Virus record (IMG/VR): IMGVR_UViG_3300033064_006579
Coordinates: 1-64,000 of that record
Source of the DNA: a virus
Length of the DNA: 64,000 bases
Reading direction: 5' to 3' (one strand)
Shown here: positions 20,580 to 33,307 of the stretch, in pieces
Layout: each line of letters begins with the position of its first letter
Position numbering within the stretch: the stretch's first letter is position 1
Notes under the pieces: generated by a model
The model's input: the letters and a program-made list of their open reading frames with translations, nothing else
Databases searched by the model: none
Told to the model about the DNA's origin: nothing
Program-made: the position numbers and the translations under genes

Positions 20580-23500
20580 TTAAAGTAAAATTTCGTTTAT
20601 CCCTCCAAGTGATTTGATAGTCTCGAAAAAATTCTTTATGCCTGCTTCAAATAATTCCTCGTTTGCCTTGCGGTTATGGAGAACCGCTGCCGGATGGACG
20701 CACCAACAAATCCATGCCTTCGCTTTCTCGTTCCATTCAGTCATACCGTTCTTTTTAGTGATACCGCCGTCAGCCCCAGTCCACGCCTTGATATTCGTAT
20801 TGCCGAAGGCGAGGATCAACCGACAATCTATCTCCTCAAGTTCCTCGACGAGCCATGGCAGGCAAGCGTCAATATGCTCTTTCTTCGGCGTCTTCGTAAT
20901 GCTCGGCCAGCATTTCACAATATTTGAAACATGAAATTTCAACCTATTCAATCCGTACATCGTGATCTCAGGCCATAGAATATCATTACCGGCAGCGCCG
21001 CAGAATCCCTCCCTATTCTTATCTTCTTCTCTGCCCGGTCCCTCACCGATTATCGCTATATTCCATAGCCCCTTGGACGGCATCACTGGCGTCGAGCATT
21101 CTTCTCTAAGCCCGCACCTTTCGCACTCGAGGAGTTCTCGATTTGAAAACCTGACTCTCCTAAATATCTCTGGCACGATAATCTTTCCGACTTTGACATC
21201 CTCGACATCTCTCGACCTAATACGTTCTCCAATAACTTTATCGAGGTTGGGGTAAGCCAGAGAAGAGTCTTGATGTATAGGGAAACTAAAATACTCCTGG
21301 GCGTTAGGACGAGCAATTCCTTCATCAATCCCATCGAAAGCTCCTATATCCTCGAGCATCTGCTCGAATTTGTTTTTTTTACCAATTGGTGGAGATCCAT
21401 CCTTTTCTTTCAGCCGGAAAAAACCCTTGTTTTTTCCAACTTTGAGTTTTTCAAAAGAGGCGGCTTTAGAGGCAGTCTTTTCGCCAACCCCTTTAATTTC
21501 AATGAAAGGCACATATAGCTTGTCATCCTTAGCAACCCATTTAAACGCGTCGGAAATGCCACATTTGGGCACAACAATCGACAGACCTAAACGACAAGAC
21601 TCCTTTATTAATTCTTCCTTTTTCCCTTCTGAACCGTAGGAAAGATTGGCACAAATAAATTGGGTAGGATAATAGACTTTTAACCACATACACCAAAAAC
21701 CGATCATTGAGTATGTAAAAGAATGGCTGCGATTAAATCCGTAGCCGCCAAACTCCTCGATTTCTTTCCAAATCACCTCTGCCTTTTTACTCGATATGCC
21801 GTTTGCTTTGTTGCACCCACTAATAAAGCTATCTTTAAACTTCACAAGTTCTTTTTTACCTCTGCTTTTTCCAATGACTTTTCTAACCTTATCGGACTCG
21901 GCCCATGTGAAACCAGCAAGATCCCTAACTAATTGCATAACCTGCTCTTGATAAACAAGAATACCATAGGTCGAGCCGGCTATATTTTCAACTTTAGGGT
22001 GAGACGACTTCCATTTTTTGCCGTTTTTCCTTTCGACATATTTACCCACCATGCCGCTTCTCAATGGCCCGGGACGATAGAGAGCGTTGATGGCAACAAG
22101 ATCTTCGAAATTACTTACCTTCATTTTTTTACAGAGATTAGTAATACCATGAGAATTGAATTGGAAACAACCAACGGTCTCGCCATCGGCAAACTCTCTA
22201 AAAACCTTCTCATCATCAATCGGAATATCTTCGAATACAATATCTATGTCACGACTCTTTTTAATTAGCTTTTTTGCTTCGTTAAGAATTGACAAGGCAC
22301 TAAGGCCAAGAACATCGAGCTTCAAAAGTCCGACGTGCTCGGCGTTGTCGAAATCCCAATTGATTACAACCTGGTCGCTTCTGCTCATTAAATTACATCT
22401 CTTGCCAAGCCTCAAATCTTCGGCAGATATCACGACCCCAGCAGCATGACGGCCATAACCCCTTACTTGACCCTCTAAAGCAATAGCATATTTAACAACA
22501 TCCGGATATTTTCTTTTGAACCTTTCGCCTTCTTTTGTGTCTTCAACAGCCTTTTTAATCCAGTCATGACTTTTTGCTTTTGTCGACGGCTCGTCGATCG
22601 CCTTGGCAAACTCATCTACGTCTTTATAAGGTACATCAAAAACCCTTGCAACGTCGCGGATAGCCATACGGGCCTTCATCCTGAGAAAAGTCGAAATCCC
22701 AGCAACACTATTTCTACCATATAAGTCTTCGAGATGGGAGAGAACAAGATGGCGTTTCGCATCTTCGAAATCGATGTCGATGTCTGGATAATCTATTCGA
22801 TCTTCAGAAATAAATCTTGAAAAAAGCAAGCTATGCTTGACAGGATCAACCGAAGTGATTCTAAGAAGATAAGAGATCAACGATCCGCTCACAGACCCTC
22901 TGCCCGGCCCAATCATGATATCATGTTCCCCGCACCAATTAACGAGTTCCCAGACTATGAGAAAGTATCGAGAAAATTTCTTGGTCTTTATAAGCTCAAA
23001 CTCCTCGTGCAGCCTATCCTCATAGATCTCCAACGGTTCGAGTTTGTTTCTTTTTCCATCACAACAAAGATCCCAAAGCACCAAATCCTCGTCGAGATGC
23101 GATTCAATATTGGGAGGCATTGGCAAGAAAATATCTTGTTTTTCAACCCTGAAATCACAGCACTTCTCGGCGATTTCAATAGTATTCGCCATGGCTTCTT
23201 CTATATCTTCGTCTCTAAGAACACCCTGCTCTCTAAAAGATTTGACCATCTCATCAGCAGATTTAAGATAGAGCTCGTCAAAATCGCCAAATGTCCAACG
23301 ATCTTTATCTGCCCATTTCTTTTTTCTTTGGACAGCAAGAAGAACTTCCTGAAGGATATTGTCTCTTGGGTTTACATAATGGCAATCATTTGTGGCAACA
23401 AGGGAAACTGGAGGGTCAAAATGATCACTAAAATCAAGAACAATATTTGTCGTTTCGATCTGGATCTTCGGGCTATGGGGCATGACTTCGACATAAATTT

Positions 23501-23966
23501 CTGAGGTGAGAGCAACTGCATCAAAAAAATCTGCGCCTCGTTCGTGATGTAAAAAAGTATCTAAACAGCCAGTAAGAACTATCAAGCCATCGAGATGTTG
23601 TAAAAGCCTATTGTAATCGATTCTTGGTTTACGATAGAAGCCTTCAAGGTTGGCATAGGTTAAAAGTTGAAGAAGGTTTTCCCAACCCGCTTTGTTCTTG
23701 ACTAACAAGACAATGTGACGACGTTTTTCATCTTTATTCTTTACCTTGGCGTCTGGGACAATATAACACTCGCAGCCAGTGATTGGCTTGACACCTTGTC
23801 TGTCGCATTCCTTCTGCCACTCGATAATGCCGTCGACATTGCCATGATTCGTGAGCCCTATATATTTTTGCCCCAACTCTTTGGCTCGTTTAATATAACT
23901 TTCTGCTGTCCCGACGCCGTCGAGCTGAGAGTACTCATTGTGAATGTGTAAGTGACAGAAATTCAT
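20580..23966 (-). CDS. dnaE: DNA polymerase III alpha (DnaE) with C-terminal family-4-like uracil-DNA glycosylase domain
   Basis: PHP HLHIHNEYSQLDG, GRGS, PDIDIDF, HAAG, KLDVLGL and YGFNRSH. Then CERC.L, IIGEGPG, NIVKCWP and HPAA. Confidence 0.92.
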   Translation of the reverse strand: MNFCHLHIHNEYSQLDGVGTAESYIKRAKELGQKYIGLTNHGNVDGIIEWQKECDRQGVKPITGCECYIVPDAKVKNKDEKRRHIVLLVKNKAGWENLLQLLTYANLEGFYRKPRIDYNRLLQHLDGLIVLTGCLDTFLHHERGADFFDAVALTSEIYVEVMPHSPKIQIETTNIVLDFSDHFDPPVSLVATNDCHYVNPRDNILQEVLLAVQRKKKWADKDRWTFGDFDELYLKSADEMVKSFREQGVLRDEDIEEAMANTIEIAEKCCDFRVEKQDIFLPMPPNIESHLDEDLVLWDLCCDGKRNKLEPLEIYEDRLHEEFELIKTKKFSRYFLIVWELVNWCGEHDIMIGPGRGSVSGSLISYLLRITSVDPVKHSLLFSRFISEDRIDYPDIDIDFEDAKRHLVLSHLEDLYGRNSVAGISTFLRMKARMAIRDVARVFDVPYKDVDEFAKAIDEPSTKAKSHDWIKKAVEDTKEGERFKRKYPDVVKYAIALEGQVRGYGRHAAGVVISAEDLRLGKRCNLMSRSDQVVINWDFDNAEHVGLLKLDVLGLSALSILNEAKKLIKKSRDIDIVFEDIPIDDEKVFREFADGETVGCFQFNSHGITNLCKKMKVSNFEDLVAINALYRPGPLRSGMVGKYVERKNGKKWKSSHPKVENIAGSTYGILVYQEQVMQLVRDLAGFTWAESDKVRKVIGKSRGKKELVKFKDSFISGCNKANGISSKKAEVIWKEIEEFGGYGFNRSHSFTYSMIGFWCMWLKVYYPTQFICANLSYGSEGKKEELIKESCRLGLSIVVPKCGISDAFKWVAKDDKLYVPFIEIKGVGEKTASKAASFEKLKVGKNKGFFRLKEKDGSPPIGKKNKFEQMLEDIGAFDGIDEGIARPNAQEYFSFPIHQDSSLAYPNLDKVIGERIRSRDVEDVKVGKIIVPEIFRRVRFSNRELLECERCGLREECSTPVMPSKGLWNIAIIGEGPGREEDKNREGFCGAAGNDILWPEITMYGLNRLKFHVSNIVKCWPSITKTPKKEHIDACLPWLVEELEEIDCRLILAFGNTNIKAWTGADGGITKKNGMTEWNEKAKAWICWCVHPAAVLHNRKANEELFEAGIKNFFETIKSLGGINEILL

Positions 23967-25003
23967 TATAAACACACCAGATATTTAAATTTACCACTGA
24001 TAAACAAACCTTTTCTATCGCCATATTTCATTGTTCTTACATCGCAATTTTCCAATAGGCTCTTTAAGAACAGTGGCGAGATACTAAACTCTATAGGCTC
24101 GCTCGTAAACTTCACACTGGACTCGACCGTTATCTCGCCAACATCTTTCTTTTTGCTACTGACAACTAATTTATCAGTGGCAATTTTAAAAAGAACCATA
24201 TCGTCAGACACAACGGCAGAATCGTCTAAAACCACAGAAGCCAAGCCAATCGTTTCCAATAAATCTCCTGGAAGCCTTAGATTAACACCTTTGAAGTCAA
24301 ACAAGTCTAAATAGCTGGGAAATTCATCGATTTCTACCCTGGAGCAAAAATGAACGTCTTTGTTTTCTCCTCTAAACAACACCCATTCAGAACTTAAATA
24401 AAACTCGTCTACATCAAACTTAGCCAGCTCTTCGGCGCAATTAGCTCTGATCAAAAAATCGCATCCAATATCCTCGGGTAGACTATAAATACCAATCCTC
24501 GAATCGTCGGAGGCGATGACGTGCTGTCCCGAAACGCAAATGTAGTTCAAAACACTCCTCACATCGCGAGAGACAGAGAAAGAACACAAACCCAACGCCT
24601 CTAAAAATTCAGAAGGTAGTGGCCGCCAGTCTAAATCTTCATCTAAGACAAACTTCAAATTTTCTTTAAAAACTTTGCCGACTCCTCCATATTCATCTAA
24701 AGATAACGAAACAAATTTCCCCTTGATCTTACCGCATTTAGCGACTAAATTCTTATCTTCCAAAGTTAATTCAATTTCCTTGTCGCCGACACGGGATACA
24801 AAATTATAGAATTCCTTAGAGGAGACAGAGCAAGAGAAATCCGTCTCGAGTTTATGCCAAACACAAATTCGATCGTTATAAGTTAAAATCATGTCACCAG
24901 TGAAAACGAAATGGGTAGCTTGTTGAATAATATCTTTTTGAGCCAACCCTGGTCTCACTTTAATCAATATTTTAGCCAAATCTTTTCCGTTAATCTTGGT
25001 CAT
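23966..25003 (-). CDS. DNA polymerase sliding clamp (beta-like)
   Basis: About 345 aa with IASDDSR and EFP.Y patterns. Coupled to dnaE. Confidence 0.7.
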   Translation of the reverse strand: MTKINGKDLAKILIKVRPGLAQKDIIQQATHFVFTGDMILTYNDRICVWHKLETDFSCSVSSKEFYNFVSRVGDKEIELTLEDKNLVAKCGKIKGKFVSLSLDEYGGVGKVFKENLKFVLDEDLDWRPLPSEFLEALGLCSFSVSRDVRSVLNYICVSGQHVIASDDSRIGIYSLPEDIGCDFLIRANCAEELAKFDVDEFYLSSEWVLFRGENKDVHFCSRVEIDEFPSYLDLFDFKGVNLRLPGDLLETIGLASVVLDDSAVVSDDMVLFKIATDKLVVSSKKKDVGEITVESSVKFTSEPIEFSISPLFLKSLLENCDVRTMKYGDRKGLFISGKFKYLVCL

Positions 25004-25169
25004 TATCAACCTCCTCTGCAACTTCCATTATGTTATGACAAGCTTTGAGATAATAAAAAGACAATAGACGGCAATAATGATTGGAATTTTCAAGGGCAAA
25101 ATCACACATCTTTCTCTCCTTGTCTTTGCTGGCCATCAAAGGAAAATTTCCTGCAAAATAAATATGCAT
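24990..25169 (-). CDS. MxIYFAG microprotein (DpdA N-terminal-like module) 5
   Basis: MHIYFAG...RLLSFYY. TAATG overlap with the DpdA-like stop. Confidence 0.65.
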   Translation of the reverse strand: MHIYFAGNFPLMASKDKERKMCDFALENSNHYCRLLSFYYLKACHNIMEVAEEVDNDQD

Positions 25170-26167
25170 TATCCCCTCCCAAATCGTTTCTTTTTCAATT
25201 GAAAAGGCCAGGGCCACTCGGGAGATTCCTGCTCGAACCTTATAAAATAGAGGAAATTCATTTCATCCCTCAAGGGATAGTCGTTAATGACACCCCATTC
25301 TATAACCCTCTCTATTTCATAATCATGCAATTTCAATTGATCGTCGTTTAACCACTTCTCGTTCTTGCTCTTATCCAGCTCATAACCTTCGTAGACCTCA
25401 ATGAATTCAGATACTCCTATCTTTCGATCTTCCTCATCGAGGTACTTCAAAATCTGCTTTCTCTCCATATCCGAAAAAGAATTATAATGCTTTCCATCTT
25501 GTTTTTGACAGGGCTGGCGGGTAGAGAAGGCCACTCTCAAGGGGTCCTCTTCATAATAACACCACTGCCCGTTCCTAAACCTCGGAACCAAAACAATTCC
25601 AAATCTTCCATAGAGAACCCACGAAGTCGAATCCACCGAATACCAAGGATACCTTCTCATTAAATCAGTCGAGGTAACAGCAAAGCCGTGAACTTTGACT
25701 TTTGGCATGCCATCTTTATCGACCAAATGATTGAACCAAATGTTATCTAACATTGGCACAACCACCGGCACGGGATTAGGGACAATACCGCCAAGGGCGA
25801 TATACTTGTGCCCTTTATCCAAATACATTTTTAGCCATTTAGTATCGCTACCCAAATGAAAAACAGGGATAGGTTTCAACCCTTCTTTTTCCAAATACTG
25901 CTGATTTTCCCAAGTCTTCTCTGGGTTATTAATTACGTCAAAATTGGCGTAGACTTCAAATCGCTTCTCTTCTCTCTTTAGAAAGTCAACATATTTTTCT
26001 AAATACTTTCGATAGTCAGCCGACTCTAAAAAACTATAATCGTCATGCCTCCTATCGCCCATATGAGCACCAGTATGAACCCCTTTAGTCTTATCGGCCC
26101 TCATATACTGATTGTACAATGAGGGCGCACCGCAGTCCAAAAACATCTTTAAAGCTTTCTTAGCCAT
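25169..26167 (-). CDS. dpdA: DpdA-like DNA 7-deazaguanine transglycosylase (TGT fold)
   Basis: Motifs FLDCGA, FDVI, PIPVFH, YIALGG, KVHGFA and SVDSTSW. Clustered with folE/queD/queE. Confidence 0.75.
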   Translation of the reverse strand: MAKKALKMFLDCGAPSLYNQYMRADKTKGVHTGAHMGDRRHDDYSFLESADYRKYLEKYVDFLKREEKRFEVYANFDVINNPEKTWENQQYLEKEGLKPIPVFHLGSDTKWLKMYLDKGHKYIALGGIVPNPVPVVVPMLDNIWFNHLVDKDGMPKVKVHGFAVTSTDLMRRYPWYSVDSTSWVLYGRFGIVLVPRFRNGQWCYYEEDPLRVAFSTRQPCQKQDGKHYNSFSDMERKQILKYLDEEDRKIGVSEFIEVYEGYELDKSKNEKWLNDDQLKLHDYEIERVIEWGVINDYPLRDEMNFLYFIRFEQESPEWPWPFQLKKKRFGRG

Positions 26168-27209
26168 TTGCTCTCCTCATGATATTAATCATTTTTGGAA
26201 TTGCTGCTTCTCCCTTTTCGATCAAAACCCTCCTATTGTTTATTAATGAGTGCCTGTAATAGGCAGGACCTTCGATATACAAAGATATCCTTCTCACTAA
26301 ATCCTCAATATCGCTGAATACAAAGCGAACGTCATAAAGCTCTGGATAACTCAAGCGATTGGGGACAAAGGGAAGACAGCCTGAGAATGCCGCCTCTTGC
26401 ATCGCGATACCCCAAGTCTCTTGCATAGCAAAAGATACGGCTATCTTGGCTTTCTGTAAGGATCTGTAGTAATAGATCTTCTTCTCACTCTCTGTAAGAA
26501 GACCACTTTGTTTATTCCAGTCGTCCATTGTTCTGATAAAGCGCCAATCGTTAAAAAGACCCGTCTCTTTGAGTTTCTCTTCGAGGGTTGCGAAATCCTC
26601 TGGCACTTTTTCCGGATCCAGCCTGTGAGGAAAAACGACGACGTCCTCTTTTTCATCCCAATCAGTCCCGTATTTCCAATAAATAGGAAAGCCGGTGACG
26701 TGAATCTTTTTAAAATCCACATCGCGAGAGTTTGATAACATTTGCTTATGGAACGAAGTAGCAACAAAAATACCGTCGATAAATTTAAACCACCCGTTTT
26801 CTATATCCTCCGCCCATCGCCCCATGCCCCTTTGAGCAAGAAAATCATAAGGGTCATAGGTACCGGCATGAAGGCAGCCGAATATTTTAAACTCTAACCC
26901 CAAGCCATCTCTAATATAGGCCAACATCTCAATACCAGGAAACCAGAGATCGTGAAAAAAGAAAACATCGCCATCTCTGACACCACCACTATATATCATC
27001 TCGACTATTCTCTGAAGCTGAGTAGCTTTAAAATAATTGGTGCCACAAACATCGAGAAAACTCCCCTCCTCAATTTTACTGGTTAATTGCCGGCCATGAA
27101 TTGTGAGAGCGTCGACATCGAGGCGATTGAATTCTATTGGGAACCATTCATTCCATTGAGATGAATACCGTTCTTCGATATTTTCGATTGGTATGTTAAA
27201 TATTCTCAT
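26160..27209 (-). CDS. GT-B glycosyltransferase
   Basis: VVFPHRLDPEK, QETWGIAMQEA (EX7E) and PNRLSYPEL. Start at MRIFNIPIE. Confidence 0.8.
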   Translation of the reverse strand: MRIFNIPIENIEERYSSQWNEWFPIEFNRLDVDALTIHGRQLTSKIEEGSFLDVCGTNYFKATQLQRIVEMIYSGGVRDGDVFFFHDLWFPGIEMLAYIRDGLGLEFKIFGCLHAGTYDPYDFLAQRGMGRWAEDIENGWFKFIDGIFVATSFHKQMLSNSRDVDFKKIHVTGFPIYWKYGTDWDEKEDVVVFPHRLDPEKVPEDFATLEEKLKETGLFNDWRFIRTMDDWNKQSGLLTESEKKIYYYRSLQKAKIAVSFAMQETWGIAMQEAAFSGCLPFVPNRLSYPELYDVRFVFSDIEDLVRRISLYIEGPAYYRHSLINNRRVLIEKGEAAIPKMINIMRRANG

Positions 27210-27387
27210 CTTTCCCCTGCTCGTCAACCATTTCGACCCAATCGGCATAGTTCTTCTTTGCACTGAAAGCGTAGGCTTCTTTCTCACCAGAGAGAGCAAA
27301 GAAAGAAAATAGACGATTGGCTTGAAACTTCCTTAGAACCGCCTCTCTTTTCTTTCCCATACCTATACCGGCAAAGTAGATTATCAC
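27196..27387 (-). CDS. MxIYFAG microprotein 4
   Basis: MIIYFAG...RLFSFF. Confidence 0.6.
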   Translation of the reverse strand: MIIYFAGIGMGKKREAVLRKFQANRLFSFFALSGEKEAYAFSAKKNYADWVEMVDEQGKDENI

Positions 27388-27566
27388 TCTTCTTCTACTT
27401 CTTTCTTCCAGAATTCATAATGAGCCTTACAATTGGCCACACCGGTTTCTATCTGTCCCCACGACATCTTCACTTTACACTCTTCTTGAGAACCAGCCCA
27501 TATCGCTTCAGAAATATATCTACCCTTTCCAATACTTTCCCCAGAATCGCCAAAATAAATCTTCAT
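27384..27566 (-). CDS. MxIYF microprotein 3 (divergent)
   Basis: MKIYFGDSG. Coupled on both sides. Confidence 0.5.
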   Translation of the reverse strand: MKIYFGDSGESIGKGRYISEAIWAGSQEECKVKMSWGQIETGVANCKAHYEFWKKEVEEE

Positions 27567-28861
27567 ATTACCTCCAACCTCGCACAGATTGCAAGATACA
27601 TCGCTGCTTGCGCCAGAGTTATGCCATACTGGCTACGAATAGACTTTAATATATCAAATACTTTACCGTCGCCAAATTGAATTGAGTCGGGAAGATTATA
27701 AAGATCGAACCACTTGTAATCTTCTTCAACAACTTCCCTCTTCTTCTCCACTACATCCTCTATAAACGAGTGAGGGAGAAAACTGGGAATAAGCCTAATT
27801 GGCCTATCGGAGACGAATATGCCTTCGCTCCCAAGTTCATCAAAACCCTTCGTACCATGATAAGGCTGGAAAAATTGCCCTAACCCACCGCGGGTAGAAT
27901 TAGTGGCTATCCTACCATACAACGTGCCAATGTCGTGCCCATTCTTATCCAAGAACCTACCAGTCTCGTTTAACGTAGATATTGTTTCTCCGGGAAAAAA
28001 TGTCAGCGTGAGCCAAAATATATCCGCACCACTTATTTCATCAGCCAAAGCCTCACATTGAGAGAAAGATGGCTTACCCATTTCCTTAGTCAAGAAAGGA
28101 TCTGCAGTCTCCATACCAACCTCAATCAACTTCGCCCCAGAATCAATGAGTGCAGTATTTCCAAAAGTCTTAATAAACCTTCTCACACTATCTACGCTCC
28201 CAAGCGCGATAAATTTCATATTTTTAGAAGAGGCGTGTTCTAATATCCTGCCCGCCCGGTCGGTATCGTAAAAAAAATCCTCATCTGTAAAATGAATATT
28301 TTTGACGCCGAGAGATTGGCAAGCATTAAGAACTTCTTTGACTTTTTCAACAGGGGTGGAAAGCCTCTGGTGACCGCAGTTCACAGAGGAAGGGCAGAAC
28401 GAACACTTCCTCGGACACCCATAAGAAGTAAATAAAGGGTAGACTTGCCCAGAATACTTCTTAAGATGCATATCGCAATCGCTCAATAATATATATTTGA
28501 AATGCGAATAATGTGCCGGATACGCTTCGATACCTCTCAAAACAAGATAATCAGTCACTCGATAAACAGGGAGTTTATAATACTCGACTAAAGGGTAGAA
28601 ACCAAAAAAACCCCTTTTACCCTTGAGAAATTGATTCAGAATAAAGCAGATATCTAATTGAGGATAGGACCAAAGAGCCACTAAATAATGATTGGCTTTG
28701 GGAAGGGAGTCTAATTCTGCTGCTGTAAAGTTTTCAACAATGCCTACATCAACTCCGTCGCTCTTCAACGCAGAGTAAAGAATATAGGGAAGGTAACAAA
28801 AACTACCTCGATTAAATTCAGTCGAGGCGGGGTCTATAATTAAAACATCATAGTCGATCAT
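27563..28861 (-). CDS. Radical SAM protein (B12-binding-class-like architecture)
   Basis: TSYGCPRKCSFC, FTDEDF, VGMETAD and FPGET, with an N-terminal Rossmannoid region. Confidence 0.8.
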   Translation of the reverse strand: MIDYDVLIIDPASTEFNRGSFCYLPYILYSALKSDGVDVGIVENFTAAELDSLPKANHYLVALWSYPQLDICFILNQFLKGKRGFFGFYPLVEYYKLPVYRVTDYLVLRGIEAYPAHYSHFKYILLSDCDMHLKKYSGQVYPLFTSYGCPRKCSFCPSSVNCGHQRLSTPVEKVKEVLNACQSLGVKNIHFTDEDFFYDTDRAGRILEHASSKNMKFIALGSVDSVRRFIKTFGNTALIDSGAKLIEVGMETADPFLTKEMGKPSFSQCEALADEISGADIFWLTLTFFPGETISTLNETGRFLDKNGHDIGTLYGRIATNSTRGGLGQFFQPYHGTKGFDELGSEGIFVSDRPIRLIPSFLPHSFIEDVVEKKREVVEEDYKWFDLYNLPDSIQFGDGKVFDILKSIRSQYGITLAQAAMYLAICARLEVI

Positions 28862-29207
28862 AAAACACCTCTACACCATTCTCGTCGTCCTCGAACACAG
28901 AGACGTAATTAGCCGCGAATATTGAGGCGAACTCGTCAGCAATCGTCTCACACGACTTAGAACCTATATCTTTTCCCTCCCAGCGATCCTGAATATAAGA
29001 ATGAATCTCGTTTTTCATCCTTATAAACTCGATATCTCTATCCGTATGGGTAACAGGGAATTTAAGTGTGAGGTGGAAGATGTGCCTATGAGGATGTTGC
29101 AGAAAAAGAACCTCTTCAAAAGGGCAGGCGGGCCAGCAATGAACGGCTGAAAATTGAGTTTTTACAACTACATTTCTCGTTACCATCACGGCTTCTACCT
29201 TCCCCAT
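28848..29207 (-). CDS. QueD-paralog T-fold protein (DpdL-like, putative CDG decarboxylase)
   Basis: HCWP, LQHPHRHIF (LxxxHRHxF), DRDIEF, SCE and VSVFEDDENG. Confidence 0.65.
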   Translation of the reverse strand: MGKVEAVMVTRNVVVKTQFSAVHCWPACPFEEVLFLQHPHRHIFHLTLKFPVTHTDRDIEFIRMKNEIHSYIQDRWEGKDIGSKSCETIADEFASIFAANYVSVFEDDENGVEVFYDRL

Positions 29208-29791
29208 TAGTGCTCTTTATCAAAGAGGGATATTTTGATCAAATCGTAACCCTTTTGTTCTAAAAATTTATCTGTGGCGAAGACGCCTTGGACAGAGGAG
29301 GTGGTCATACCTCCGCCACCGTACTGCTTCACCCCGCGACATCTCATACAAGAATGGATACCCCTCATCACGACCATTGTGCCGCTTGGACGAACGTTAT
29401 TTTGAAGCGCCTCGGCGACCTCACAACATAAAGACTCTTGAAGTTGAGGGCGACTGGCGAAATGGTTAATGAGGCGCGCGCATTTGGAGGCCCCTAACAA
29501 TTCAGCCTTTGGTATATAAAGGACCCAAGCATGCCCTGTGAACGGCAGGAAATGATGCGCACAAGTGGAAATAAAATATACCCTATCCAACATGATAATC
29601 TGACTATAATTCCGATTATTAGGTGAAAGCTTATAATCATCAAACTCGCTGTCTATACAAGAGAAGAACTCTTGGCAGAACATTCGAGCCACCCTGTTGG
29701 GGGTATCTTTAAGGTTGGGATCAGACAAGTCCAACCCCAACCCTTCTTCCATCAACTTTCTAAAATGAGATTCGACCACCTTTGGGTTCAT
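29207..29791 (-). CDS. folE: GTP cyclohydrolase I
   Basis: Motifs DTPNRVARM, STCAHHFLPF, GASK..R, RPQLQE and HSCMRCRG. Confidence 0.92.
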   Translation of the reverse strand: MNPKVVESHFRKLMEEGLGLDLSDPNLKDTPNRVARMFCQEFFSCIDSEFDDYKLSPNNRNYSQIIMLDRVYFISTCAHHFLPFTGHAWVLYIPKAELLGASKCARLINHFASRPQLQESLCCEVAEALQNNVRPSGTMVVMRGIHSCMRCRGVKQYGGGGMTTSSVQGVFATDKFLEQKGYDLIKISLFDKEH

Positions 29792-29793
29792 GA

Positions 29794-30306
29794 TTAACCC
29801 GCGGCAGCAATACTTTTGTAAGTTTTAACGCGCTTCTTCGCAAAGTCTGCATTGGTATTACCCTTCTCTGCATACCTTGCGATAAAAACCGCCTCAATCT
29901 CCTCATCGGTTTTCTTTTCTTTGAGCAGCGACTTCATCAAATCGATATTGCTCAACTTCTTCCCTTCCGCTTCCTCCCTGGCCTCTCCATCGGCCTCTGC
30001 TTCTCCAGCAGGGTCGCCTTCAGTCAAATCCATTTTGGAGTCTTCGATGACATCAACATAAGAATTATAGAGCTTGACGACATCTGGAGGGATGAGCTTC
30101 TCTTGCTCTGTTCCCTCATCGACGGACTCGAAGCTGACTATAAAGCCCTTTACAATCGCCTCTTTTTTCTTCGCAACGAAAGCGATTTTATCGTCACCAA
30201 GGGCGCCGCAGTCATTCAAGCCCTTACACGCCGCCTTCAACGCCACAAAATCAAAACCCTCTACCTTCACCACTTTTTCAATCTGTGTTTCTGTCAACTT
30301 TGCCAT
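29794..30306 (-). CDS. Hypothetical charged protein
   Basis: Lies downstream of the promoter motif, with a GGAG RBS. Confidence 0.6.
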   Translation of the reverse strand: MAKLTETQIEKVVKVEGFDFVALKAACKGLNDCGALGDDKIAFVAKKKEAIVKGFIVSFESVDEGTEQEKLIPPDVVKLYNSYVDVIEDSKMDLTEGDPAGEAEADGEAREEAEGKKLSNIDLMKSLLKEKKTDEEIEAVFIARYAEKGNTNADFAKKRVKTYKSIAAAG

Positions 30307-30361
30307 TTCTACTCTCCTTTTCAATAATTTTTAGTTTCATTTTCATTTTCACTTTACCTAC

Positions 30362-30395
30362 ATTATAATGAATATCTACTGAGCCCTGAAAAAAT
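30362..30395 (-). promoter_or_regulatory. Putative phage promoter
   Basis: + strand ATTATAAT-N8-ACTGAG-N5-AAAAAAT. Confidence 0.6.
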
Positions 30396-30417
30396 AGATT
30401 TCCCCTCCTTTCGTTTT

Positions 30418-31071
30418 TTATTTTTCATCGCTCTCGCCGCAATCGGGCCATATAATCTTATGTATCTGTAAATTCAAGATAACATCAGAAAGACCAGCGA
30501 CTTGAATCCATTTAACCAGCGAGCTCGGATCTAAATCACAGGGTGAATAAACAAATTGAGCAAGACATCCCTTACTCTCGAATTCGAGCTTTTTCCTATT
30601 TGCCTCTCGAAAATCTTCAGCAGTCTGTATCACAAATTTAACAAAATCATTTCTCCTCAAAGCACAGAACACGGTGTCAACCATAAAATGTTGACAACCC
30701 GAACTCGGCAATTTATAATCAACCACCCAACTACCAACGCCAAACCCTATCGGATGATAGGAGCCATTTGTTTCGATCGACACCTTATAATCCAATCGAT
30801 AAAGCCTACGAGTCAATTCAAAAACAGCGTCAGTCTGAGCAAGTGGTTCACCCCCAGTAATAGTCAATTTATCAGAAGGATATTTTCGAACTTCTCGAAT
30901 AACATCCTCTGCCGACATCTCGTTACCAGCAGTGAAAGACCGAGCATAAGGAGTATCACAATAGGTACACTCCAAATTACAACCGGCGAACCTAATAAAA
31001 GTAGCTATCCTTCCTTGATGATATGCATTTGCTTCTCCATCGATACTCGAAAATATGCTATAAATCCTCAT
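30418..31071 (-). CDS. queE: 7-carboxy-7-deazaguanine synthase
   Basis: Motifs IFSSIDGE, FIRFAGCNLECTYCDT, TGGEP, IETNG and QIHK. Confidence 0.93.
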   Translation of the reverse strand: MRIYSIFSSIDGEANAYHQGRIATFIRFAGCNLECTYCDTPYARSFTAGNEMSAEDVIREVRKYPSDKLTITGGEPLAQTDAVFELTRRLYRLDYKVSIETNGSYHPIGFGVGSWVVDYKLPSSGCQHFMVDTVFCALRRNDFVKFVIQTAEDFREANRKKLEFESKGCLAQFVYSPCDLDPSSLVKWIQVAGLSDVILNLQIHKIIWPDCGESDEK

Positions 31072-31252
31072 CTTGCTCCTCCCCTTCTTCGGCCAATTGA
31101 TTATAAAGGTTATATATCCATCTCTGATCGCGATTCTTCCCAGTCATATAATAAAAAGAAATCAACCTACCGCTGGTGCGCTTAGCCACAAACCTCTCGA
31201 CCCCTTTAAGCCTCGCCCCGCCACCAAGATTACCGGCAAAGTAAATCCTCAT
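31058..31252 (-). CDS. MxIYFAG microprotein 2
   Basis: MRIYFAG...RLISFYY. Confidence 0.65.
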   Translation of the reverse strand: MRIYFAGNLGGGARLKGVERFVAKRTSGRLISFYYMTGKNRDQRWIYNLYNQLAEEGEEQDEDL

Positions 31253-31415
31253 CACTTTTCCTTTCGGCCTCTTCGGCCACACCGAGTAAGATCTTCATAT
31301 GGTTTTGGTAATAGAACGATAACAACCTATGAGTTAAACCAATCTCAAATAAACTCTCTTCATTCTCCTTCAATGTTCTTCTTCCTCCAGGGATACCTGC
31401 AAAATATATTTTCAT
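31230..31415 (-). CDS. MxIYFAG microprotein 1
   Basis: MKIYFAG...RLLSFYY. TAATG overlap with the queD stop. Confidence 0.65.
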   Translation of the reverse strand: MKIYFAGIPGGRRTLKENEESLFEIGLTHRLLSFYYQNHMKILLGVAEEAERKSDEDLLCR

Positions 31416-31789
31416 TATTCCCTCCACTCTGCGTATGAGTCGTCGCTTTCCCAAAGCCGTACTCGAATAACTTTCCTGCGATCATCATCCAGATACTTCT
31501 GAAGAACCGCGGCAAACTTAACAACAAGAATTTCTGCCGTAGGATTAAAAGTAAGTTGATTCAAATGTGTATGATCAATGCCTTCAAGCAATTTATCAGT
31601 AACAATTTTTTTCAACTCTCCGAAATCCATAATCATCCCATTGTCGGGGCGATCAAAATCGCTGACTACTTCACCAGCTACTTCAACTTCTAATTTGTAA
31701 TTATGGCCATGAAGATTCTTACACTTTCCTTTATGGCAGGGAAGAATATGAGAACCACAAAAACTAAATATCTTCGTTATCGATACCAT
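31415..31789 (-). CDS. queD: 6-carboxytetrahydropterin synthase
   Basis: Motifs H.L, CKNLHGHNY, MDFGELK, DHTHLN, PTAE and VRLWES. Confidence 0.93.
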   Translation of the reverse strand: MVSITKIFSFCGSHILPCHKGKCKNLHGHNYKLEVEVAGEVVSDFDRPDNGMIMDFGELKKIVTDKLLEGIDHTHLNQLTFNPTAEILVVKFAAVLQKYLDDDRRKVIRVRLWESDDSYAEWRE

Positions 31790-33307
31790 TTAATCTCTCC
31801 TCTCAAACTCGGCGTCGAGCAGCGGCTTACCCACGCCAAGTTGTTGAAGCACAACGACCTTGGCTAATTCGTTGAACTCCTCATCTCTGGCCGCACAAAC
31901 TCCAATCCTCATCACCCCAGCCAATTTCTCCTCTCTCGTTTGATTCAAAGTGTACATCAAATCAACATGAGCAGGGTTGCGATAATTTTCGCTCGAATCT
32001 GCTGCGCCGACATTTGCCCTATCCCACGATTTCCGAGCAGCTTGAGTAGCAGTAACAACCACAGCCTTCCTCTCTGAAGCTAATCGAGCATGATGCATCC
32101 AAAGTTCGTCAACAGCGTGCCTAAACTCGCCCGAAGGTCTTTGCATGATATCTGCATAATCGGTGATTATCATGTCAGGCGTGAAGCCTTCAGTGTATTG
32201 CAACACATCTAAATCACTTTCAACTTCATTCATTCCCGCAGAGAACCTCGGATAGGCCTTGAGGCGAAGACGATCGCCGTACATTTTAACAAAGCTCTCC
32301 GTTTTCTTTCGAACGACCCCCAAACCCATCGTGGGCCTTTCCACCTGCTCAAACCATGTCTCTTGAATATACTCGCCAGGGCCGTCGTGATCTCGACAAT
32401 AAGTGCAGATTTTATAACTCTTAGGAGTATCTTTAAAATGGACGGGTTTATCGTCACCACCCCGAAGCGCGATTTTACATGTTCTTTCTGCCAGATCGCA
32501 CTCATCTACTTGGTTTAAGAGACAATCAAACCTTGGGTATATAACTTGCGGCTGCCTCTTAGAAAAGGCGATAATGTTTTGATAAAATCGCCTTTTCATC
32601 CTATCCTCATCAATTTCAAAAGAGAAAAACACCACATTTCTCTTTTGCATCGCGACAAGAATGGCTAAATCCATCATCCACCAAGTCTTCCCCTTCTTTA
32701 TTGGGCCTAAAACAGCCACAAAATAATTCCTCAATAAAGGGCCGCTTAGTTGCCCGAGCGGCCCTGGATATTGAAAGACAATATCGTCCCTCATATCCAT
32801 TGCTTTATTAATCTCACTGGGAGTAAAGGGGTTGACCCATTTAGAAGTGGTCGCAGCAATTTTCTTATAGTTAGCAACAAGTGCATTGGCGTCACTATGT
32901 CTGTCCTGATCCAACATCTCTTCAACACCTTTGGCAAGGAACCTAAGATTACACTCTTCAATATACTTAATGCTTTCGCTAATTAAATACTGTTCGTTGA
33001 TACCATTTGTAGCTTCGTATTGATCTGAAATTTGGGCAAGAAGTTTCTCAATCAACTCTTTGTCGCCACTTTTTAGTTCACCCTTATTTTTATCAAAAAT
33101 GTTTTGTATATGTGCCCTCGGCGCCTCCTTGTAAACAGAATAGTAATCTCTAATCCACCTCAAAATAACTCGAACATAATCTATATCGATGGCAGAAATA
33201 TTTACCCTACTTATCACCTCCCTACAGACGACGTTAGAAATTATCGACCCTATCAATAAACTCCTCTCTACACCACTACTAATCCGCCTCCTCTTAAACT
33301 CAACCAT
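31790..33307 (-). CDS. DnaB-like replicative helicase with Cys-rich insertion
   Basis: Motifs GPIKKGKT, FSFE, DYAD and TATQ. The insertion carries C..C..C..CTYC. Confidence 0.8.
   Translation of the reverse strand: MVEFKRRRISSGVERSLLIGSIISNVVCREVISRVNISAIDIDYVRVILRWIRDYYSVYKEAPRAHIQNIFDKNKGELKSGDKELIEKLLAQISDQYEATNGINEQYLISESIKYIEECNLRFLAKGVEEMLDQDRHSDANALVANYKKIAATTSKWVNPFTPSEINKAMDMRDDIVFQYPGPLGQLSGPLLRNYFVAVLGPIKKGKTWWMMDLAILVAMQKRNVVFFSFEIDEDRMKRRFYQNIIAFSKRQPQVIYPRFDCLLNQVDECDLAERTCKIALRGGDDKPVHFKDTPKSYKICTYCRDHDGPGEYIQETWFEQVERPTMGLGVVRKKTESFVKMYGDRLRLKAYPRFSAGMNEVESDLDVLQYTEGFTPDMIITDYADIMQRPSGEFRHAVDELWMHHARLASERKAVVVTATQAARKSWDRANVGAADSSENYRNPAHVDLMYTLNQTREEKLAGVMRIGVCAARDEEFNELAKVVVLQQLGVGKPLLDAEFERRD

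Follow-up and report, generated by a model that had tools for sequence, protein, structure and literature searches.

A probable split DpdA, with proposed alternative mini-protein barrel quarters, in the 7-deazaguanine gene cluster of an uncultivated phage

The first 64,000 nucleotides (the window) of IMG/VR virus record IMGVR_UViG_3300033064_006579, a complete 112,458-bp record with direct terminal repeats, contain a gene cluster lying wholly on the minus strand in which dpdA, the gene for the base-exchange enzyme of 7-deazaguanine DNA modification, is accompanied by several mini-genes of about 60 codons. The DpdA open reading frame (ORF) lacks the first quarter of its catalytic barrel, and the mini-proteins, here called modules, resemble this missing quarter. 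It is very likely that the enzyme is split and that the module encoded directly downstream of the core (module 5) is its cognate partner. The whole explanation, in which the other modules also serve as alternative barrel-closing subunits of the same core, is held with moderate confidence. That DpdA belongs to the tRNA-guanine transglycosylase (TGT) superfamily is known; for the split, with four versions of one barrel quarter, no earlier account was found. The core and the small ORFs, in the order in which they are read, are the following.

31230-31415, minus strand: module 1, 61 residues, subtype B (G-I/V-PGG loop), between QueD and module 2; family hidden Markov model (HMM) E 1.8e-19
31058-31252, minus strand: module 2, 64 residues, GNLGGG loop, between module 1 and QueE and overlapping both; HMM E 1.7e-16
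27384-27566, minus strand: 60-residue ORF, doubtful module, MKIYF start only; hhalign probability 36% over 10 residues
27196-27387, minus strand: module 4, 63 residues, GTG start, GIGMGKKRE loop and RLFSFF, between ORF 27384-27566 and the glycosyltransferase gene; HMM E 7e-14
25169-26167, minus strand: DpdA catalytic core, 332 residues, strands β3-β8 and an Ins8-like subdomain; PHROG 887, E 2e-41
24990-25169, minus strand: module 5, 59 residues, subtype A (GNFPxM loop), directly downstream of the core; HMM E 7e-26

An earlier note on this DNA had counted five paralogous small ORFs, four of them sharing the motifs M-x-IYFAG and RL(L/I/F)SF(Y/F). The motifs are indeed common to four, with M, I, Y, F, AG and RL-x-SF invariant in the alignment, and a search of the whole 112,458-bp genome with the family HMM returned exactly these four (E 7e-26 to 7e-14, as listed). 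The count of five did not survive. Both motifs, a length of 50-80 residues and a significant profile match were found together in the four modules and not in ORF 27384-27566, which gave no family HMM match at E<=1 and for which no homologue was found beyond its own cluster. Reading it as a frameshifted module was rejected, no module being present in any frame. It is best regarded as a doubtful or degenerate copy, and judged by its sequence should be dropped from the family. Together with module 4 it forms a pair inserted between the radical S-adenosylmethionine (SAM) and glycosyltransferase genes, direct neighbours of each other in most relatives. Searches of the five mini-proteins against Pfam and PHROGs yielded nothing meaningful. 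Within the family, residues A6, G7, R30, L31, S33 and F34 are invariant and all fall in the modelled interface with the core, and the catalytic-face residues of AG and SF(Y) are invariant in all module subtypes; the differences between paralogues concentrate in the β1-α1 loop and in α2. In module 4 the second strand is less canonical (RLFSFFAL). Homopolymers of 6 or more bases are absent from the four window modules, as are dinucleotide repeats above 4 units. Switching of the modules by slippery repeats was rejected on these grounds, and on/off switching is thus not indicated in the window genome. A programmed frameshift joining core and module 5, by a -1 slip at their TAATG overlap that would give a permutant-like fusion, was likewise set aside, since nothing supports it and it is not needed.

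The core ORF begins with MAKKALKM followed directly by FLDCGA, that is, 8 residues before the catalytic motif of β3. Crystallography of bacterial DpdA places the catalytic Asp95 in β3, after β1, Ins1, β2 and Ins2 (PMC10164549). The window core is therefore without β1 and β2, and a complete (β/α)8 barrel is reached only by core plus module, not by the core polypeptide. Its catalytic residues are nevertheless preserved in an alignment of 74 core sequences, where D11 at the end of β3 (LDSGA), D77, H160-G161 and D179 at the end of β8 (SVDS) are invariant, D11 and D179 being the catalytic aspartates. The structural Zn site CXCX2CX22H of bacterial DpdA and TGTs is not visible in the core ORF, and the alignment has no invariant or near-invariant cysteine. 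The core profile detects the bacterial DpdA structure 7UI4 weakly in the PDB (E 0.064), in a weak HMM alignment that sets FLDsGA on the catalytic MGDCGAF of 7UI4; phmmer with the core found nothing in the PDB. As far as sequence allows, the core ORF is assigned to the DpdA/TGT superfamily and predicted to exchange guanine for a 7-deazaguanine in DNA. The complete genome holds this one DpdA core only.

By tblastn, 183 deposited phage records match the core (best E 5e-36) and the alignment runs from core residue 1. The counterpart of this residue in phage 9g DpdA is about residue 62; the match starts 61 codons inside the annotated 9g dpdA and, in Pantoea phage Vid5, 52 codons inside. A search for homologues of the core gave 672 at E<=1e-10. 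Among the 120 closest, 87 start no more than 20 residues before LDSGA, while about 30 carry an N-terminal extension of 50-87 residues with both module motifs. P0081, for example, has a subtype-A module (GNFPQLK ... RLNSFYY) fused N-terminally to its core. When the module profile was aligned by hhalign with the N-fused DpdAs, it matched their extreme N-terminus (96%, E 4e-9, columns 1-40); against 9g DpdA alone the match is below significance. The modules and the first 40-60 residues of related full-length DpdAs are, by this comparison, homologous. The 8-residue start and the statement that many phage TGT-like proteins begin MKIY(L/F)AG...L.S(F/Y).Y before LDSGA, both made in the earlier note, are borne out by these data.

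Further natural fusions were found by a profile search of 1.84 billion cluster representatives, which returned 395 matches at E<=1e-3, mostly proteins of 50-80 residues. At least nine of the matches are DpdA cores that start at LDSGA and end in a subtype-A module. These natural circular permutants keep the order of the window, core and then module 5. In P0199, P0283 and P0286, a single ORF carries two or three in-frame tandem modules, each with its own Met, ahead of one core, and it is conceivable that such ORFs use alternative initiation or alternative folding within one chain. The locus L034 (8948-10135) has a single ORF of the same kind, with in-frame modules and their own Mets ahead of one core. 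In L008 (2492-4282), dpdA has one module upstream and four tandem modules downstream; another N-module adjoins the core directly but is out of its frame by one, next to a (GA)n tract in a KERE-coding stretch. This was seen in L008 only and may reflect an error in sequencing, a pseudogene or a switch. Three long matches to the module profile (P0174, P0257 and P0277) were discarded as translated repetitive DNA with the recurring unit CDLLSFYYLCRTGNN; by their sequence, these are probably arrays of repeats annotated as genes, with no relation to DpdA.

The fit between core and module was examined by complex prediction from the window core (74-row alignment) and module 5 (24-row alignment). The interface score ipSAE was 0.87, 0.89 and 0.89, against 0.07 for the best control, a mark reached by 58 of 80 solved complexes and by 2 of 110 mismatched pairs. 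Agreement between the runs is 90% of contacts or better, and the pLDDT of the partner is at least 87. The contacts of lowest error join module residues 2-4 to core residues 176-179 (YSVDS, in β8, with the second catalytic Asp) and module residues 32-38 to core residues 7-10 (the FLD strand, β3). In the model, module β1 thus lies against core β8 and module β2 against core β3, which is the closed-barrel order β8-β1-β2-β3, and the edges of the six-strand core are open in models. Module 5 is accordingly modelled between β8 and β3 when predicted with the core, as the earlier note had proposed to check, and it is a probable β1-α1-β2-α2 subunit, its binding being modelled. An AlphaFold2 (AF2) model of the natural permutant P0156 (pLDDT 85, pTM 0.85) has six core strands and a confident C-terminal strand-loop-helix-strand-helix unit. 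A Foldseek search with the model of this homologue, not of the window protein, returned DpdA 7UI4 on top, followed by bacterial and human TGTs (E about 7e-4, probability 1.00); 6H42 and 7NQ4, which we take to be structures of the eukaryotic TGT QTRT1/QTRT2, are among the matches. The subtype signature of P0156, GNFPQM, forms the loop directly after β1, and in a TIM barrel this loop belongs to the catalytic face. Taken with the missing β1 and β2, the hhalign match and the natural fusions, the complex model supports the further proposal of the earlier note that the first barrel strands are supplied in trans; the fifth ORF drops out of it.

The remaining genes of the cluster are listed here in the same reading direction.

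31790-33307, minus strand: helicase, the first gene of the cluster when read 5′ to 3′ on the minus strand
31415-31789, minus strand: QueD, between the helicase gene and module 1
30418-31071, minus strand: QueE, 3′ of module 2
29794-30324, minus strand: acidic protein of 176 residues with no assigned function, between QueE and FolE
29207-29791, minus strand: FolE
28848-29207, minus strand: QueD-like/DpdL-like protein, 119 residues, with the LxxxHRHxF signature read in its sequence
27563-28861, minus strand: radical SAM protein
26160-27209, minus strand: GT-B-like glycosyltransferase
downstream of module 5, minus strand: sliding clamp, then a PolIII-α-like polymerase (20580-23975)

All five small ORFs, of 61, 64, 60, 63 and 59 residues, are tightly coupled to their neighbours, as had been claimed. 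TAATG is common to the stop of QueD and the start of module 1, and again to the stop of the DpdA core and the start of module 5; module 2 starts 23 nt inside module 1. ATGA is shared by the stop of the radical SAM gene and the start of ORF 27384-27566, and GTGA by the stop of this ORF and the GTG start of module 4. Modules 2, 4 and 5 run 14 nt into the gene that follows (31058-31071 with QueE, 27196-27209 with the glycosyltransferase gene, and 24990-25003 with the clamp gene). Shine-Dalgarno-like purine runs precede most of the small ORFs, and a scan of the cluster for promoters and terminators gave no enrichment and nothing usable. The genes that follow modules 2, 4 and 5 open with module-like codons (MRIY in QueE, MRIF in the glycosyltransferase, MTKI in the clamp), and the acidic tails of the modules (DEDL, DENI, DQD) are the start DNA of the neighbour read in another frame. 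The overlaps look like cassette insertion by microhomology at ATGARRATnTA, to judge from the letters.

FolE, QueD and QueE lie in the same minus-strand cluster as DpdA, a linkage kept in relatives; no QueC was seen in the window cluster. The 119-residue QueD-like protein contains LQHPHRHIF and thus the signature LxxxHRHxF of DpdL, the proposed 7-carboxy-7-deazaguanine (CDG) decarboxylase (PMC10516641). DpdL, radical SAM protein and glycosyltransferase are kept as a trio in at least nine related contigs, which suggests that the 7-deazaguanine base may be modified further. The cluster is organized differently in the DpdL-carrying isolate Chryseobacterium phage MA9V-3. The acidic 176-residue protein occupies the same slot between QueE and FolE in several related clusters. 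The window polymerase carries, as read from its sequence, a C-terminal segment like family 4 uracil-DNA glycosylases (GEGPG...), and in the relative L003 (10164-12821) such a segment is read at the N-terminus of a PolA-like protein.

A survey of 85 distinct IMG/VR loci around homologous cores detected at least one module by HMM in 68, at least two in 30 and at least three in 14. In 35 of the 85 loci the 250 nt after the core include a module start, and in 16 a module lies inside the core ORF. Among the 17 apparently empty loci, nine (L031, L034, L038, L045, L059, L078, L083, L084 and L088) hold divergent or fused modules. The loop after β1 defines recurrent subtypes (GNFPxM, G-V/I-PGG, ATWL, ASTAPGNE, GGxxVMNVKGRE and GTPGTxERE, among others), and these signatures persist even in phages with DpdA cores of only about 40% identity to each other. 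Of the 85 modules in multi-module loci, 81 are nearest to a module of another genome, and so are all four window modules: the nearest relatives of module 1 are P0009 and L004, not its own paralogues, and those of modules 2 and 4 also lie in other genomes. The paralogues therefore represent old, retained lineages and not recent debris. Well-supported branches of the core tree imply at least 7-9 switches of architecture among the free, N-fused and C-fused forms. The closest relatives (L009-L019 and L031) have the whole helicase-to-polymerase cluster in common with the window and carry one to three modules, of which a subtype-A-like one always follows the core or is fused to it; in relatives, subtype A comes immediately after the core or is joined to one of its ends, C- or N-terminal. 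No other member of the clade has as many modules as the window, where they are scattered among the biosynthesis genes and form no array. A consensus-like subtype-A module found no real match by tblastn in 50,697 deposited phage genomes, and no relatives of the modules appeared in a scan of 185,579 prokaryote genomes. The module family is so far known only from metagenomic phage contigs.

Phage 7-deazaguanine clusters as such are already known (PMC6884629, PMC10516641). The nearest known enzymes are the phage DpdA1 proteins of the Queuovirinae type (9g, Vid5, CAjan and iggy), which are about 33-35% identical to the window protein over the catalytic core and whose loci likewise place FolE, QueD and QueE beside clamp and polymerase genes. 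In 9g and Vid5, IYMAA is followed after about 25 residues by ILESWHY and after about 15 more by IFLDSGA, a module-then-core layout; all eight strands reside on one polypeptide there, whereas the window has the first quarter separate and in four versions. Neither the 9g nor the Vid5 locus showed a module gene. In engineered split or half TIM barrels (HisF-N/HisF-C, fragment complementation), fragments associate non-covalently and rebuild a (β/α)8 barrel. Such barrels, cut 4+4, were made in the laboratory or inferred as ancestors, while the DpdA split is natural, cut 6+2, and comes with permutants and several quarters. The eukaryotic TGT heterodimer QTRT1/QTRT2 needs a second, homologous polypeptide, but both of its subunits are full barrels, with neither strand complementation nor alternative partners. 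The split archaeosine TGT is cut between the catalytic and the C-terminal RNA-binding domains, not inside the barrel, and has one partner. Found in Nanoarchaeota and other archaea, it resembles the DpdA pair as a TGT-superfamily enzyme divided between two genes (PMC3655853). Type I restriction-modification HsdS offers a functional analogy only, in that one catalytic machine is combined with exchangeable small specificity subunits present as several paralogues; its fold and chemistry are unrelated, it is a separate DNA-binding protein, and switching, demonstrated there, is only inferred for the modules. Bacterial DpdA (Salmonella Montevideo, 7UI4), the best structural match of the modelled permutant P0156, has the same TIM-barrel transglycosylase fold. 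Its catalytic Asp is in β3 and its insertions after β1 and β2 lie on the DNA-binding and active-site face, but it is a monomeric single chain, much longer, with a Zn site (CXCX2CX22H) and 94 residues before the catalytic Asp (PMC10164549). A literature search for a split, permutation, heterodimer or microprotein of DpdA found no account of a split DpdA or of the mini-proteins.

We favour an explanation in which DpdA is a split (β/α)8-barrel enzyme. The 332-residue core would provide β3-β8, both catalytic aspartates and the large Ins8-like insertion, and a mini-protein of about 60 residues (β1, loop, α1, β2, α2) would insert between β8 and β3 and so close the open barrel. Module 5, of subtype A, would be the cognate partner, made in step with the core via the TAATG stop-start overlap. 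Modules 1, 2 and 4 would be alternative barrel-closing subunits, with the same core-contacting strands (IYFAG, RLxSFY) and with differences in the β1-α1 loop and in α2, on or near the catalytic, DNA-facing side. All the core-contacting residues of the model are retained in modules 1, 2 and 4, whose subtypes serve as N-termini of many complete DpdAs. One core could thus take several enzyme forms, most likely differing in DNA-context preference or protein partner, and several forms would broaden the 7-deazaguanine substitution of phage DNA. We infer both the use of modules 1, 2 and 4 and any difference in specificity; different specificities are plausible on the model because the type-defining loop lies on the catalytic face. 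In TGT enzymes, base (substrate) specificity is set mainly by elements and loops of the core, and a change of DNA context or partner therefore seems more likely than a change of base. In bacterial DpdA, the β1/α1 insertion helps to form the DNA-binding surface and the β2/α2 insertion flanks the active site (PMC10164549). In its boldest form, the proposal is a plug-in enzyme in which interchangeable two-strand quarter-barrels, each subtype with its own loop on the active-site face, re-target one six-strand core to another DNA context or partner, a possibility that we put forward tentatively.

Several points weigh against this explanation. Many relatives with a complete N-fused DpdA keep one to three stand-alone modules (L017, L030, L032, L037 and L053), so the extra modules are not merely barrel completers; in these phages a trans module must displace the cis one or act elsewhere, and free modules beside complete DpdAs fit a regulatory or core-independent role as well as they fit swapping. 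In the distant core-only loci L047, L062, L074, L076, L079 and L086 no module was seen, and some core-only proteins in databases may reflect start-codon choice or contig ends. The complex prediction covers module 5 alone, and its ipSAE of 0.89 is evidence that the folds are compatible, not that the two proteins bind in the cell, since the halves of split genes tend to pass through their resemblance to single-chain structures already solved. For the N-fused P0081, the AF2 model has its N-module at low confidence (pLDDT 35-50) and is uninformative. Finally, the type-defining loop has about 8 residues, compared with 21 for Ins1 of bacterial DpdA.

The persistence of modules beside complete DpdAs is shared ground for two rivals. 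Only module 5 might work as a subunit, with the others being regulators of the microProtein type that fill the open barrel or act as competitors of the cognate module, thereby holding DpdA inactive or timing its activity in infection. Modules outnumber cores in nearly all genomes, including those with a complete DpdA, subtype A is the one subtype that is C-terminally fused to the core and that, in the clade of the window, follows it directly, and the less canonical β2 of module 4 would suit such a role. However, non-A subtypes (G-V-PGGG, GTTVS, GTPGT) occur as N-terminal fusions of many apparently functional DpdAs and are therefore competent barrel pieces, and the catalytic-face AG and SF(Y) are maintained in every subtype, which makes this rival rather unlikely. 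Alternatively, the extra modules could be independent of the core, either binding another replication or modification protein or self-assembling as (β-α)2 quarter-barrels. Relatives' modules often lie after the clamp gene or between QueD and QueE and not by dpdA, as one would expect in that case. No second open-barrel protein is present in the complete genome with its one core, though, sampled modules occur only in dpdA-carrying phage contigs and in none of the prokaryote genomes scanned, and conservation in the modules falls on the residues that the model places against the core. We consider this option unlikely.

It is very unlikely that the extra modules have no protein function of their own, being duplication debris or short coupling ORFs whose sole part is to hand ribosomes on to the QueE, glycosyltransferase and clamp genes. 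The 14-nt overlaps and the similar starts of the next genes do suggest microhomology insertion and translational coupling, and ORF 27384-27566 looks like a degenerate copy; yet the four module ORFs are intact and free of slippery tracts, each is closer to modules of other genomes than to its paralogues, and the subtype signatures have outlasted divergence of the cores to about 40% identity. That the DpdA ORF is complete and active alone, or a dead remnant, with its likeness to the modules incidental, is highly improbable: the six-strand core has open edges in models, the core-only architecture with an adjacent module is kept in dozens of phages, and the catalytic residues are invariant. The split barrel with alternative closing subunits remains the explanation that we prefer.

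If this holds, DpdA, the signature gene of 7-deazaguanine DNA modification, would be incomplete alone in this large uncultivated phage clade, its essential partner being an ORF of about 60 codons that annotation pipelines rarely call or name and that belongs to no Pfam or PHROG family. Heterologous tests of such DpdA genes would fail without a co-expressed module. Reconstitution of some DpdL-linked DpdAs in E. coli yielded no product (PMC10516641), a pointer only, because those DpdAs belong to other subfamilies. The family would also provide a natural 6+2 split of a TIM barrel in which N-fused, C-fused (circularly permuted), tandem and free forms coexist; with all four architectures and the repeated, well-supported changes on the core tree, it should be useful for the study of barrel modularity. 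If the modules set target preference, they may offer a compact way to re-program a DNA base-exchange enzyme. For the phage, a plug-in enzyme, if real, would mean that a small gene set gives broad or near-complete 7-deazaguanine substitution and thereby escape from many restriction systems.

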